DNA from: Quinella sp. | Lineage (GTDB): Bacteria > Bacillota > Negativicutes > Selenomonadales > Selenomonadaceae | DNA length: 64,000 nt | NCBI GenBank assembly: GCA_045118435.1 | Contig: JBGUYA010000153.1 | Span: forward strand, 4,391-68,390 | Direction of reading: 5' to 3' | Shown: positions 3,772 through 42,240 of the stretch, one piece after another | How the letters are laid out: each line of letters begins with the position of its first letter | Numbering within the stretch: position 1 is the stretch's first letter | Notes under the pieces: generated by a model | Seen by the model: the letters and a program-made list of their open reading frames with translations, nothing else | Database searches by the model: none | What the model was told of the DNA's origin: nothing | Translations under genes and position numbers: made by a program

Positions 3772-3842
3772 ATCTTCATTTGTGCTAAGCTTAGCAAAAA
3801 TTTTGCGGCGAACGCGAAAGAATTCAGCAGGGAGAAATTTCA

Positions 3843-6308
3843 ATGGGGATGATTACTAAAAAGGATTTCGGAACGCGGCGTTATCTCTTCGCTGTTGCAA
3901 TTTTTTTCGGTGTGAGTGCCACGACTTGCCAAGCCGCCGATTCTCAAACGGAAAGTTCCGCCGTCGAGAGCGAGGCGGATAAAAATATCGGCTTGCAAAT
4001 TTCCGGCGTGGGTGATGAAGTCGTGCAGAGCAAAGATATTTTGCTTACGGACGACTCGGCAATCGGCATTCTCGTTGACGGCTTGGGAAATAAAATCACA
4101 ATCTCGCGCGGCACTGTGATTCAGTCCGGCGGCAAAGGCATTTTGATTTCCTACGGGCGCGGTCAAACGCTCAACGTCGCGGGCAACGTCACGGCGTCGG
4201 GCAATGCCATTGAGTTCAATTTTGATGAGACAACTTTAGACACGGGCGGCGAGTTTCGCGGTTCCTATATCCGTTATCTGCGCGGCTACGACGCGGAAGG
4301 AAATCTTGTTTCGGCGGTCAATCTTCCGCTTATCATGAACGACGGCGAGTTTAATTACGCGTCGGACGAGCTTAACGGCGCGATTGTCAACGACTTTAAC
4401 TTGTCGGGAAAAATTTCGGGCAAGCGGGCGATTTACATTGGCAAAAATACTTTCGTCAAAAATATCAACGTCAACAAGGGCGCGCAGATAAGCGGCAATA
4501 TCGTTTCCGATTGGAAACACTTCGCGGCGTTTGCTTCAAGCGAAAATGTCGAGCCGATTAAAATTCAATACGGCGACAAAGTTTTTACCGCCACGCGATA
4601 TATCCCCGACCTCGTCACGAACTTGAACTTCAACACGAGCTTGACTTACGCTGGAAACATTTCGGGCGCGGATAATATTCGTGTGAACGTCAACAAGGGC
4701 ACGCTGAATTTTTCGGGCACGGCTAACGTTGTGAGCGTCGAGGTCATGAGCGGCGCGAAACTTTACGGCGGCACTTTCTATCTCAACGACCAAACGTTTA
4801 TGATTGCCGACGGCTACAGCGACGAGGCGACGGGCAAGTTCATAAATCACGGAACTATTGCCGCGAACTCTCCCGACACGAATTTAATCATCAACGGCGA
4901 TTTGGTTAGCGACGGCGTGATTCAGAAAGTTTCGGGCGGCGTGGGCGGCTCAATTATCGTCAGCGGCAACGCCAATATCGACGGCTCGACCGTCACGACT
5001 GATTCTCTCCTGCCGAATCAAACCGCGACTGTTCTTGTCGCTAACTCAATCACGGGCGACATTAAAAATCCGACCGGCAAGCCTATTCCGATTTCCGCGA
5101 CGCTCAGCGCGACCGGCAAGATTGTCGATAATACTTTGCTTGTCACGACTTACGCGACGGAGAATACCGACGGCATGACTTCGCAAGAGACCAAGACTTT
5201 AAACGCAATGCACGACATGTTTGAAAATCTCAAAGGTGACAGTCAACAAAAAGAAATGCGCGAGCTTTACAACTTGGACGAACCCACGACCAAGAAGACG
5301 CTGACGGAGATTGGCTCAACCGACGCCGCGCAGGTTATGAGCGTTGCGCAACAAAATACCGCTGTTGACAAAATGATTTCAAGCCGTGTCACGAAAGTTT
5401 TTGCGCCCGAAATCGCGCCCGATTATATCAGCGTGAATGTCAGCTCGCTTGCCTTCGCCGACGGTGAAACTAATTCGCCCGAAATGAAAGTCAAGGTCAA
5501 AGTTCCTTCGCGGCAGGAGAATAATTTTTGGCTTAACTACATGAAGAATTGGGGCAACCTGCGCGGCGGCACGGATTATCATGGCTCGGTTATCGTTGGC
5601 GGCTATGACAGACCGTTTGGCAAGAAAGTTCGCGCGGGCATTTTCGCGACGTACGGGACAATCGGCTATGGCGCGGAGTCTTCGCGGGCGACGGTTTACG
5701 ATACGCGGTTGGGGCTTTACGCGGGCTATCACAACAAGGCAAGCGATGTTTATTTTTATGTCAACGGCGGGCAGTTGCGCAACTCTTTGCACAGAGGAAT
5801 TTCGTCGTTGGGTTTGGCGACCAGTGCCAATTACAAAAGTCACATTGTCGAAGTCGGCGGCGAGTATAAGTATGACCTTTCGCGCAAAAAGACTTGGCAT
5901 GTCAGTCCATTTGTAAATTTTCAGGCGTCATATCTCAAGCAGAGCGGCTACAACGAGCGCGGTGCGGGCATTTACAATCAGCACGTCGACGCGGGTAGCA
6001 ACACCTATTTTGCGGCGCAAGTTGGCTTTGATTTCAAGCGGTATTATCGCGACGGCATGATTGGCATGAGGTTTGGCGTTAAGCACGGGTTCACGGGAGC
6101 CGACCCCGATTTGCGAATCAGCTACGAGGGCAACGACGCCGGAAGTTATAAAATGCGCTATGACCGCGACAAGACGCATTTTGTCTGTTCGTTGCGCGGC
6201 GAAAATGAATTTGCGCGTGGTTGGTTTATTGGCGGCGAGGCGGAACTCCAGCGCGGTGAAACCGATAAAGACGTTACGGCGTCGCTTATGTTGAGGAGGA
6301 CTTGGTAG
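3843..6308 (+). CDS. Autotransporter outer-membrane protein (type Va secretion)
   Basis: 821 aa. N-terminal signal peptide (LFAVAIFFGVSATTCQA). Gly/Asn/Ser-rich passenger with beta-helix-like repeats (GNISG, LSGKISG, VSGNANIDG). C-terminal ~280 aa show alternating hydrophobic beta-strand patterning and end ...ASLMLRRTW, an aromatic terminal residue typical of OM beta-barrels. Confidence 0.8.
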   Translation: MGMITKKDFGTRRYLFAVAIFFGVSATTCQAADSQTESSAVESEADKNIGLQISGVGDEVVQSKDILLTDDSAIGILVDGLGNKITISRGTVIQSGGKGILISYGRGQTLNVAGNVTASGNAIEFNFDETTLDTGGEFRGSYIRYLRGYDAEGNLVSAVNLPLIMNDGEFNYASDELNGAIVNDFNLSGKISGKRAIYIGKNTFVKNINVNKGAQISGNIVSDWKHFAAFASSENVEPIKIQYGDKVFTATRYIPDLVTNLNFNTSLTYAGNISGADNIRVNVNKGTLNFSGTANVVSVEVMSGAKLYGGTFYLNDQTFMIADGYSDEATGKFINHGTIAANSPDTNLIINGDLVSDGVIQKVSGGVGGSIIVSGNANIDGSTVTTDSLLPNQTATVLVANSITGDIKNPTGKPIPISATLSATGKIVDNTLLVTTYATENTDGMTSQETKTLNAMHDMFENLKGDSQQKEMRELYNLDEPTTKKTLTEIGSTDAAQVMSVAQQNTAVDKMISSRVTKVFAPEIAPDYISVNVSSLAFADGETNSPEMKVKVKVPSRQENNFWLNYMKNWGNLRGGTDYHGSVIVGGYDRPFGKKVRAGIFATYGTIGYGAESSRATVYDTRLGLYAGYHNKASDVYFYVNGGQLRNSLHRGISSLGLATSANYKSHIVEVGGEYKYDLSRKKTWHVSPFVNFQASYLKQSGYNERGAGIYNQHVDAGSNTYFAAQVGFDFKRYYRDGMIGMRFGVKHGFTGADPDLRISYEGNDAGSYKMRYDRDKTHFVCSLRGENEFARGWFIGGEAELQRGETDKDVTASLMLRRTW

Positions 6309-6315
6309 GGTTATT

Positions 6316-6362
6316 CATACTTTCTTTGTCGGCGTCAAAGAAAGTATGCAAAGAAAGACGCT
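6316..6362 (+). repeat. Copy A of a three-copy structured intergenic element
   Basis: CATACTTTCTTTG-tcggcgt-CAAAGAAAGTATG, then CAAAGAAAG and GACGC. Same architecture as 32471-32520 and the reverse complement of 42185-42231. Confidence 0.7.
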
Positions 6363-6399
6363 CAAACCCGTTGCTAATTGATAAGGAGGAAATTTTTTA

Positions 6400-32375: not shown

Positions 32376-32470
32376 CCCCCCTTTTGTCAAAGCGTGGGCA
32401 CGCGGAACCGACTGCGGAGTTGACGGCTTGTCTCGCTGTTTTGTTTTTGAAAATATTTTTTTGTATTGAA

Positions 32471-32590
32471 CATACTTTTCTTTGCTACGCCCAAAGAAAA
32501 GTATGCAAAAGAAAGGGCGTCAGCCCCGCTGATTTCGCATCACGCGAAATAGCGCGGGCGACCGCACGTCCTGTGCGACCGGGTTGCGAC
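32471..32590 (+). repeat. Copy B of the three-copy structured intergenic element
   Basis: CATACTTTTCTTTG-ctacgcc-CAAAGAAAAGTATG, CAAAAGAAAG, GGGCGT. Then ATTTCGC-atcac-GCGAAAT hairpin and GCACGTCCTGTGCG block, the latter shared with copy C. Confidence 0.7.
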
Positions 32591-32703
32591 TACCCGCTAC
32601 GTTTCAAAATTTTTGGACGGCTAATAAAATCGGTGGGCACAAAGCTTGCCGTTTTTTTTTGCTTAGGATACAATGATAAAAAATTTTTGGCGGTGAGTTT
32701 CGT

Positions 32704-42098: not shown

Positions 42099-42112
42099 AA
42101 ATTAGTAGAGGT

Positions 42113-42231
42113 TTGCTTAAACCCGGGCGCACAGGACGTGCGCCCGCCGGCAATAAAAACAGGGATGTTTTTTTTGCCGGTCAAACGCCCTTTCTTTGCA
42201 TACTTTCTTTGGGCGCAGCAAAGAAAGTATG
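42113..42231 (-). repeat. Copy C of the three-copy structured intergenic element (reverse orientation, same sense as flanking genes)
   Basis: The reverse complement reads CATACTTTCTTTG-ctgcgcc-CAAAGAAAGTATG, CAAAGAAAG, GGGCGT, then an ACCGGCAA...TTGCCGG hairpin and GGGCGCAC-gtcct-GTGCGCCC. Confidence 0.7.
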
Positions 42232-42240
42232 AAAAACCAG

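Follow-up and report, generated by a model that had tools for sequence, protein, structure and literature searches.

An intergenic repeat of Selenomonadaceae belongs to a mobile-looking, multi-phylum family with a pseudoknot core that may form a triple helix

The 64,000-nucleotide (nt) stretch of Quinella sp. DNA studied here (Selenomonadaceae; hereafter the window) carries exactly three copies, A, B and C, of a structured intergenic element. Pfam matches placed copy A (6309..6379, + strand) between an autotransporter gene and a response regulator gene, copy B (32463..32600, + strand) between genes for a hexapeptide-repeat protein and an HlyD-type membrane-fusion protein, and copy C (42100..42238, − strand) between a gene for a protein without a Pfam hit and the gene for CobS. 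An original prediction, made from the letters of the window, had located these three copies, described their shared architecture and put each in sense orientation between two co-directional genes, all of which was borne out. Coordinates and motifs are given in the orientation of that prediction (the original strand), and element boundaries are approximate. All three are part of a family of structured intergenic repeats that is very large, looks mobile and is present in many phyla. Its invariant module is a core of ~45 nt that combines a homopyrimidine/homopurine stem of 13-14 bp, a helix of 4-5 bp, free in sequence, that the stem's loop forms with the downstream flank, and a 9-10-nt linker that mirrors the purine strand of the stem base for base.

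In copy A, the 5' arm of the long stem (stem 1; CATACTTTCTTTG, 6316-6328) forms a 13-bp hairpin with the 3' arm (CAAAGAAAGTATG, 6336-6348) across a 7-nt loop (6329-6335). The linker, or third segment, follows (CAAAGAAAG, 6349-6357; segment X2, which the mirror rule described below suggests as the third strand of a triplex), and then ACGCT (6358-6362), the 3' strand of helix 2, which pairs with GGCGT in the loop (6331-6335) through four Watson-Crick pairs and one G·U. Copy B is of a longer-run class, T4-C-T3: its 5' arm (CATACTTTTCTTTG, 32471-32484) has one extra T, while its 3' arm (CAAAGAAAAGTATG, 32492-32505) and its third segment (CAAAAGAAAG, 32506-32515), which mirrors that arm, each have one extra A, and the hairpin is of 14 bp. 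The copy B loop (32485-32491) contains the 5' strand of helix 2, ACGCC (32487-32491), and GGCGT (32516-32520) is the 3' strand. On the − strand of the window, the 5' arm of copy C (42231-42219) pairs with its 3' arm (42211-42199), the loop (42218-42212) contains GCGCC (42216-42212) as the 5' strand of helix 2, and the third segment (CAAAGAAAG, 42198-42190) leads into the 3' strand, GGCGT (42189-42185). None of 100 shuffles of the window matched the 33-nt hairpin pattern. A covariance model scored copies A, B and C at 58.9, 35.9 and 59.4 bits, respectively, and nothing else in the whole window except weaker opposite-strand echoes of the palindromic stem.

Helix 2 had been proposed from compensatory differences among the three window copies, and we evaluated it in 99 distinct cores with a 6-nt loop from many taxa. 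Its covariation score was 0.322, compared with 0.079 in shuffles (0 of 500 reached the observed value), and sliding the 3' partner gave scores of 0.035-0.086. At pair 18-43 the 99 cores comprised 40 UA, 33 GC, 21 CG and 4 GU, with one unpaired. Four pairs thus covary beyond both the shuffled and the slid controls, and the second helix is preserved across these further copies; the element is structured and under real structural constraint, as had been supposed. The length first given to helix 2, five or six bases, held in part: four pairs are supported, but the fifth is unpaired in 77 of the 99 cores, and the extra C-G pair uses the first base of the 3' arm and so competes with the closing pair of stem 1. 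The two outermost pairs at the foot of stem 1 also covary (pair 1-32, CG 53 and GC 41; pair 2-31, UA 67, CG 15 and AU 14), and the pair adjoining them on the inner side frequently reads C·A or A·C on the original strand.

At three loci from different Selenomonadales/Selenomonadaceae species (L002, L010 and L030), the element occupies the same site after the same gene end. Helix 2 differs there in a compensatory manner, with GCGCC/GGCG against TTGCC/GGCA (L002 versus L010 and L030), through either compensatory evolution in place or replacement of one copy by another.

The third segment, CAAAGAAAG, had been read as a repeat of the 3' arm. Asymmetric variants showed instead a mirror image of that arm, and never a direct repeat. 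We tabulated 202 distinct cores, ~85 of them asymmetric, in eight run-length classes (T4CT2, T4CT3, T3CT4, T5CT3, T3CCT2, T3CT2, T2CT4 and variants). Nearly all of the asymmetric cores mirror, five have off-pattern run lengths and none carries a direct repeat. For the class of copy B, T4-C-T3, the 3' arm A3-G-A4 is followed by a third segment A4-G-A3 (14 mirror cases, 0 direct). Class T4-C-T2 combines A2-G-A4 with A4-G-A2, class T3-CC-T2 combines A2-GG-A3 with A3-GG-A2, class T5-C-T3 combines A3-G-A5 with A5-G-A3, and classes T3-C-T4 and T2-C-T4 likewise mirror. When T4-C-T2 cores were scanned with the third segment left unconstrained, ~100 carried CAAAAGAA and none CAAGAAAA among the matches listed. 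This mirror rule, by which the CAAAGAAAG segment always mirrors the 3' arm, is new here.

A segment that mirrors the purine strand is at the same time complementary, in parallel, to the pyrimidine strand, and this rules out its being a protein site or an alternative pairing partner. One protein bound at three like sites (two inverted, one direct) calls for a direct repeat. If the 5' arm switched between its partner and the third segment, that segment would have to be a reverse complement, and the asymmetric classes break such pairing. The mirror is the signature of a third strand aligned on a duplex, and no arrangement other than a three-stranded alignment demands it.

It had been suggested that stem 1 and helix 2 form either a pseudoknot or mutually exclusive alternatives, and our results favour the pseudoknot. 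The 5' strand of helix 2 lies within the loop of stem 1, the two helices meet with a 0-nt spacer and a short loop side of 1-3 nt, and both covary, which is the layout of an H-type pseudoknot. The third segment would leave the foot of the stem, run back along it and be fixed at the top by helix 2; its co-variation needs both helices and the segment together, which speaks against exclusive alternatives. Geometry and covariation thus point to an H-type pseudoknot in which the linker probably occupies a groove of the long stem and forms a third strand.

On the opposite strand, that of the TwoAYGGAY motif considered below, the layout comprises a stem 1 of 4-5 bp, a U-rich loop 1 of 9-10 nt (CUUUCUUUG), a stem 2 of 13-14 bp and a loop 3 of 1-3 nt, loop 2 being absent. 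On this strand the linker would run parallel to the purine strand in the major groove, forming six U·A-U triples and one C+·G-C triple; the parallel match of loop strand to purine strand (U to A, C to G) is found, as covariation, in the ~85 asymmetric cores. The four extra base pairs at the stem foot would supply the offset by which the third strand connects to the helix strand with no spacer in between. They appear to fit the rule that a span of several base pairs across the deep groove can be bridged by one or two nucleotides. On the original strand the third strand is purine, and the triples would be of the purine·purine-pyrimidine kind.

Major-groove triplexes of U·A-U and C+·G-C triples are standard in telomerase RNA, the SAM-II riboswitch and the ENE (element for nuclear expression)/MALAT1 elements. 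Like telomerase RNA, SAM-II/SAM-V and ENE/MALAT1, the element has a loop 1 that is parallel-complementary to the purine strand of stem 2, and it shares with ENE/MALAT1 the strand order of Hoogsteen pyrimidine, Watson-Crick pyrimidine and A-rich strand. It differs from these triplex pseudoknots and from ENE in being multi-copy and dispersed, without a fixed gene context, and has no sequence or Rfam similarity to those classes. Its run of uninterrupted triples, as predicted from covariation, is longer than those of SAM-II/SAM-V.

We searched for the core with one genome per species. The exact core gave 36 loci, in Selenomonadaceae metagenome-assembled genomes (MAGs), Marinobacterium, Undibacterium, Paraburkholderia and two lineages of candidate phyla radiation (CPR) bacteria. 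Relaxing the stem foot gave at least 120 loci, including Burkholderiaceae, Ralstonia, Oxalobacteraceae, Neisseriales, Xanthomonadales, Pseudomonas, Bacteroidota isolates and Desulfuromonadaceae, and a second run-length class, also with at least 120 loci, added Clostridia/Oscillospiraceae, Latescibacterota, Gallionellales and Thiobacillus. Plasmid and chromid records added Ilyobacter (Fusobacteriota), Pseudoalteromonas, Variovorax and Chitinibacter. The core is thus spread over Pseudomonadota, Bacillota, Bacteroidota, Fusobacteriota, Desulfuromonadales, Latescibacterota and CPR bacteria, that is, at least seven phyla, in isolates as well as MAGs. Among the few loci retrieved, single genomes held several copies (Marinobacterium profundum, for example, has six loci), and both tandem and inverted doublets occur. 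Complete genomes of E. coli had no match to the core. Phage records contained only partial matches of 20-23 nt, and viral contigs of IMG/VR yielded 7 and 2 loci out of 2.9 million, several of them near contig ends; the scarcity of the latter suggests that phages are not a main carrier. The 20-nt CAAAGAAAGTAACCAAAGAA, corresponding to the 3' arm and third segment, lies in Prevotella phage Lak-B1 (MK250020.1:221754-221773) and is found at five places in each Lak megaphage record.

Locus L005, an ortholog of the window region in a sister species at 81-87% identity, has 22 nt at the site where the window has 252 nt including copy B, a presence/absence difference; the two are too diverged for the exact ends of the element to be read. 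An all-against-all comparison of open reading frames (ORFs) found no shared neighbouring gene within 2.5 kb of ~190 copies. The only candidates for a linked protein gene that recurred were ABC-type ATPases, other common families and spurious ORFs inside repeats. No target-site duplication or terminal inverted repeat was seen in single Selenomonadaceae or Marinobacterium copies when their flanks were compared visually, and no conserved flanking tetranucleotide of the cleavage or target type was present among the copies compared. The original suggestion of a mobile element resembling miniature inverted-repeat transposable elements (MITEs) therefore holds as far as a dispersed non-autonomous repeat goes (multi-copy, in many phyla, with an empty site and no linked gene), but not for terminal inverted repeats or target-site duplication.

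MITEs such as Correia are likewise non-autonomous, multi-copy and intergenic with presence/absence polymorphism, and Burkholderiaceae have units of 500-700 bp bounded by inverted copies of 95-140 nt. These Burkholderiaceae inverted pairs, however, are two whole modules and not short termini, single copies of the element lack the terminal repeats and duplication, no parent insertion sequence was found, and the covariation requires folding of a single strand rather than repeats for transposase binding.

The structure could in principle serve mobility at the level of DNA, an account we consider improbable. The hairpin, the triplex and the lock helix would form in single-stranded DNA or in supercoiled H-DNA as the substrate of an unlinked transposase or recombinase, comparable with the hairpins used by IS200/IS605 and by repetitive extragenic palindromic (REP) sequences with their REP-associated tyrosine transposases (RAYTs), and the covariation would reflect selection for transposability, not host function. 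Copy number, near-identical cores across phyla, the empty site and the inverted doublets are in keeping with this, as are single copies without target-site duplications or terminal inverted repeats, which elements moving as single strands also lack. With a spacer of 4-6 nt between them, the 3' arm and the third segment make up a homopurine mirror repeat, the arrangement from which H-DNA classically forms; DNA could accommodate either triplex motif, and the two strands fold equally well. Yet neither a transposase nor a RAYT gene lay within 2.5 kb of the ~190 copies, and the flanks lacked the conserved tetranucleotide expected for cleavage or targeting. Orientation tracks local gene direction and not replication, copy C being inverted together with its small minus-strand gene island, and different species keep the element at orthologous sites while helix 2 changes in the compensatory way described above (L002 versus L010 and L030).

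Several collected loci have more elaborate arrangements. A 488-amino-acid ORF (3782-5248) in Burkholderia sp. Ac-20365 (L090:3045-6003) is bracketed by two ~700-bp foldback units, mutually inverted and each bounded by inverted cores, with outer arms of 140 nt that are 98% complementary; this looks like a composite that could carry a gene. Xanthomonas maliensis (L110:6391-7149) has three tandem whole elements ~310-400 nt apart, resembling arrays of REPs or bacterial interspersed mosaic elements (BIMEs). Near the Marinobacterium copy of L001 there is a match to group II intron D1-D4 (RF02005, 70 bits; L001:336-597) at a distance of ~1.8 kb, and a second, degenerate core follows that copy after a few hundred nt.

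Elements of this kind are partly known already, and the closest described relative is the TwoAYGGAY motif (RF01731), reported by Weinberg et al. (2010) without a function. A 2015 paper proposed that CsrA binds the GGA loops. A preprint (bioRxiv 10.64898/2026.09.22.753630, 24 September 2026) adds to Pseudomonadota TwoAYGGAY three further hairpins, a basal stem of greater length and, on the 3' side, a pseudoknot and a terminal hairpin. Copy numbers there reach 202 per Pseudomonas genome, with medians of 11-23, and 68% of pairs are divergent doublets. Flanking repeats and an expansion resembling that of mobile elements are reported too, as are REP arrays that keep a constant position beside TwoAYGGAY in Pseudomonas fluorescens SBW25; Bacillota copies are said there to be generally without the extension.

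Among the loci searched, RF01731 matches above the gathering score lay directly beside the core in L039 and L066 (twice), and in L124 ~300 nt from the core on the same side and strand as the others. All four matches are on the strand opposite to the original one, and in Pseudomonadota the core stands directly 3' of RF01731, on its strand. The Pseudomonas loci L117, L122 and L124 have the order hairpins then core on the opposite strand, as do copies B and C and their sister copies. On the TwoAYGGAY strand these Pseudomonas loci read GGA-loop hairpins, TGTG, UUUCUUUG, CUUA, CUUUCUUUG, CACAAG, CAAAGAAAG, UGAG and a G+C-rich hairpin. In the flanks of the 2010 alignment, Psychromonas has a diverged core beside the motif, in the same order and outside the annotated structure. 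In position and neighbours the core fits the 3' pseudoknot of the preprint. The extended motif and the element have in common the module order at the Pseudomonas loci (hairpins, pseudoknot, terminal G+C-rich hairpin), multiple copies in a genome, doublets in inverted (divergent) orientation, short repeats in the flanks and the lack of a linked gene; the Burkholderiaceae inverted pairs, ~500 bp apart, are the preprint's divergent doublets. We found the pseudoknot in Negativicutes and Clostridia, in contrast to the generally unextended Bacillota copies of the preprint, and the main text of the preprint has no mention of a triplex, a feature of which we found no description. A literature search by the literal element sequence found no paper. 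Tandem (GGTTT)n and (GCTTTT)n abut Burkholderiaceae doublets at L047:~5440-5640 and L072:~420-600, and these may correspond to the 5-6-nt GMTBT(T) repeats that the preprint reports next to TwoAYGGAY.

Downstream of the core, copies B and C carry hairpins that complete the full-length Selenomonadaceae form. In copies B and C and most sister copies a T-rich leader precedes the core; next come an A+T-stemmed hairpin, a G+C-rich hairpin, GGGTTTT and ~15 conserved bases; in the window copies the leader is of 6-9 nt and stands where Proteobacteria have a G+C-rich hairpin. The downstream block that the original prediction had noted in both copies is indeed shared, with the common sequence GCACGTCCTGTGCG. 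The block of copy B (32524..32596, approximate) comprises hairpin 1 (~32524-32558, loop ATCAC), hairpin 2 (32563-32577, CGCAC GTCCT GTGCG) and a small terminal hairpin (32581-32596, GGGT...ACCC). In copy C the corresponding parts are hairpin 1 (42180-42147, loop ATCCCTG), hairpin 2 (42145-42125, GGGCGCAC GTCCT GTGCGCCC) and a mini-hairpin (42123-42110, GGTTT AAGC AAACC). On the opposite strand the two loops of copy C read CAGGGAU and CAGGAC, which contain GGA in a non-strict version of AYGGAY, and those of copy B read CGUGAU and CAGGAC. Copy A is a short form, consisting of the T-rich leader, the pseudoknot core and a right-end remnant, CAAACCCGTTGCTAATT, without either hairpin. Its right end resembles CAAACC...CTAATT of copy C, and it looks like an internal-deletion derivative that kept leader, core and right-end remnant and lost both hairpins; GGGTT (6308-6312) and AACCC (6365-6369) could pair around it.

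At its gathering threshold of 43 bits RF01731 did not match anywhere in the window, nor did it around copies B and C at E values up to 10. Rfam as a whole, at gathering thresholds and at E up to 10 near B and C, returned only chance microRNA-like hits on the palindrome and a weak match to Flavo-1 (20 bits). Most Selenomonadaceae sister copies nevertheless have AUGGAU or ACGGAC loops, and the Selenomonadales sister hairpins align to both hairpins of the model. The top Rfam hit of L015, a typical sister copy, was TwoAYGGAY on the opposite strand at 26.1 bits (threshold 43), the best score of a sister copy, in an alignment that covers both hairpins over model positions 49-109 only. Folds of either strand showed no conserved basal stem P1 enclosing both hairpins, and the window copies have no terminal 3' G+C-rich hairpin, elongated basal stem with extra hairpins or 5' GMTBT(T) repeats. 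The terminal G+C-rich hairpin is present in Proteobacteria. Companion modules thus vary by lineage: Pseudomonadota have GGA-loop hairpins and the terminal G+C-rich hairpin; in Selenomonadaceae the basal stem is lacking and the two hairpins, of the same loop type, are shorter; and Clostridia, Bacteroidota and CPR bacteria combine the core with other hairpins, none with AYGGAY loops. Since the core occurs without AYGGAY hairpins in some lineages, the pseudoknot is the common module and TwoAYGGAY one of its companions. As they escape the Rfam model, copies A-C count as a new Selenomonadaceae variant among the relatives of TwoAYGGAY and of its extended form of 2026.

The original prediction had taken the sense strand as the functional one, which the family as a whole does not support. 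Of the distinct cores, 66 have C·A or A·C at pair n3-m1 on the original strand and one has a pair of the G·U type; these 66 cores would have G·U wobbles on the opposite strand, which favours that strand, as does the orientation of the RF01731 matches. The TwoAYGGAY strand is the probable active strand for the family, and for Selenomonadaceae the evidence is divided. G·U pairs in the Selenomonad hairpins slightly favour the original strand (10 versus 5), and the composition-corrected energy difference there is −1.26 kcal/mol towards the same strand (p = 0.06). In high-G+C Proteobacteria the element prefers gene 3' ends without a clear strand.

Fifteen of 25 Selenomonadaceae copies start 2-17 nt past a co-directional stop codon in sense orientation, compared with 5.8% expected from random intergenic placement (p about 5e-13; some of the sites are orthologous). 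Copy A starts 8 nt past the stop codon of the autotransporter gene and copy C 10 nt past that of a 149-amino-acid ORF, whose product was not on record in an exact-protein look-up. The autotransporter ends at a natural C-terminus (...LRRTW), so copy A sits after the gene and not inside it. Frameshifting or readthrough was rejected, there being no slippery site and that same natural C-terminus upstream. Many Selenomonadaceae copies have the next ribosome-binding site within 20-30 nt downstream.

This adjacency is best explained if the element acts in Selenomonadaceae as sense-strand mRNA in the manner of REP sequences, which we nonetheless think unlikely overall. The functional molecule would be RNA of the original strand, in 3' untranslated regions and between cistrons; the pseudoknot 2-17 nt past the stop would block 3'-to-5' decay of the upstream cistron and hinder terminating ribosomes, and the G+C-rich second hairpin with GGGUUUU would act as a weak terminator. 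In E. coli a REP within 15 nt of a stop codon reportedly lowers translation, as Liang, Rudd and Deutscher are said to have found (Mol Cell 2015). The 15 adjacent copies (all within 20 nt), the sense orientation of all three window copies, the GGGTTTT conserved past hairpin 2 and the slight hairpin and energy preferences of the Selenomonads all agree with such a role. Set against it are the family's wobble pairs, 66 to 1 for the other strand, and the mirror rule itself, which on the sense strand implies a purine-motif triplex or minor-groove triples; to our knowledge neither is read base by base in RNA. Copy A, moreover, is without hairpins, and orientation relative to genes is weak outside Selenomonadaceae (13 same/same versus 8 opposite/opposite). 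A consensus scan for intrinsic terminators (a G+C-rich hairpin with at least five T in the 8 nt directly after it) found none within the three window copies; hairpin 2 is mostly followed by no more than 2-4 T, GGGTTTT being the commonest form. With no terminator site inside the elements and with unrelated gene contexts, the attenuator or processing site of the original prediction is not supported either.

REPs, BIMEs and REPINs (REP doublets), which RAYT transposases move, resemble the element as short structured extragenic repeats at gene 3' ends, often right past stop codons, which occur as singletons, tandem arrays and inverted doublets and leave no target-site duplication. They differ in being species-specific, simple imperfect palindromes with a 5' GTAG, whereas the core of the element is near-identical across phyla and includes a pseudoknot and a third strand. 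We found no conserved GTAG and, as noted, no RAYT gene within 2.5 kb of the ~190 copies.

The reading that we prefer, with a probability of roughly 0.6, is a mobile, multi-phylum repeat whose triplex pseudoknot core acts as a stable RNA cap. Compact and mechanically stable, the triplex pseudoknot would protect or delimit the adjoining hairpin RNA against exonucleases, which is the weakest step of the scheme. The elements would multiply like a non-autonomous mobile repeat, and in this Selenomonad the copies would be carried in mRNA sense just past stop codons, much like REP elements. A more ambitious version, which we offer tentatively and as the less probable one, is that the core is a natural bacterial RNA triple helix ranging from CPR bacteria to Proteobacteria within a gene-less, self-propagating element. 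It might then be a stability structure like ENE/MALAT1 or a structure recognized in copying, and either way it would let the element persist and spread.

Several points weigh against the RNA-cap reading. The triplex is a deduction from covariation, and a sense-strand triplex would be purine·purine-pyrimidine, which is unusual for RNA. In Selenomonadaceae the original strand is the sense strand of the flanking genes, the copies keep that orientation just past stop codons (15 of 25 against 5.8%), and the next gene's ribosome-binding site 20-30 nt after many copies makes an independent opposite-strand transcript hard to place. The 66-to-1 wobble count comes from one base pair and a few proliferated lineages, and raw differences in folding energy between the strands vanish after correction for base composition. 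The window copies do not match RF01731 at all, and the equivalence of the core with the 3' pseudoknot of the preprint is suggested by position and neighbours.

If the triplex is real, it would be among the most widespread natural triple helices of RNA (or of single-stranded DNA), and the run-length classes 3-1-3, 4-1-2, 4-1-3, 5-1-3 and 3-2-2 would be a natural mutational series in which it is directly testable. Independently of the triplex, TwoAYGGAY turns from an orphan two-hairpin motif into a cargo, specific to one lineage, of an element that bears the pseudoknot and is much broader. Its range takes in Bacillota, Bacteroidota, Fusobacteriota and CPR bacteria; earlier work placed the extension mainly in Pseudomonadota. 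The distribution of this element raises the questions of how a gene-less element spreads across phyla with a near-invariant core and why Selenomonadaceae copies settle 2-17 nt past stop codons. The core also provides a compact marker for annotating hundreds of unexplained intergenic repeats.

Some minor observations concern transcription and gene context. The sole promoter candidate inside the element, which uses CATACT as its -10 box, was rejected, as it would start transcription inside the stem. Around copy B, terminator-like hairpins with T runs stand on both sides (32422-32440 and 32631-32651), and a promoter-like site (TTGCCG, 17 nt, TACAAT) follows it ahead of the efflux operon (regions 32422-32450 and 32631-32674); copy B, unlike A and C, could be a separate transcription unit. 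The site in locus L007 is not syntenic with that of copy A. In L007 (1747-1820), as a single case, a tRNA gene lies ~64 nt upstream of the element on the same strand.

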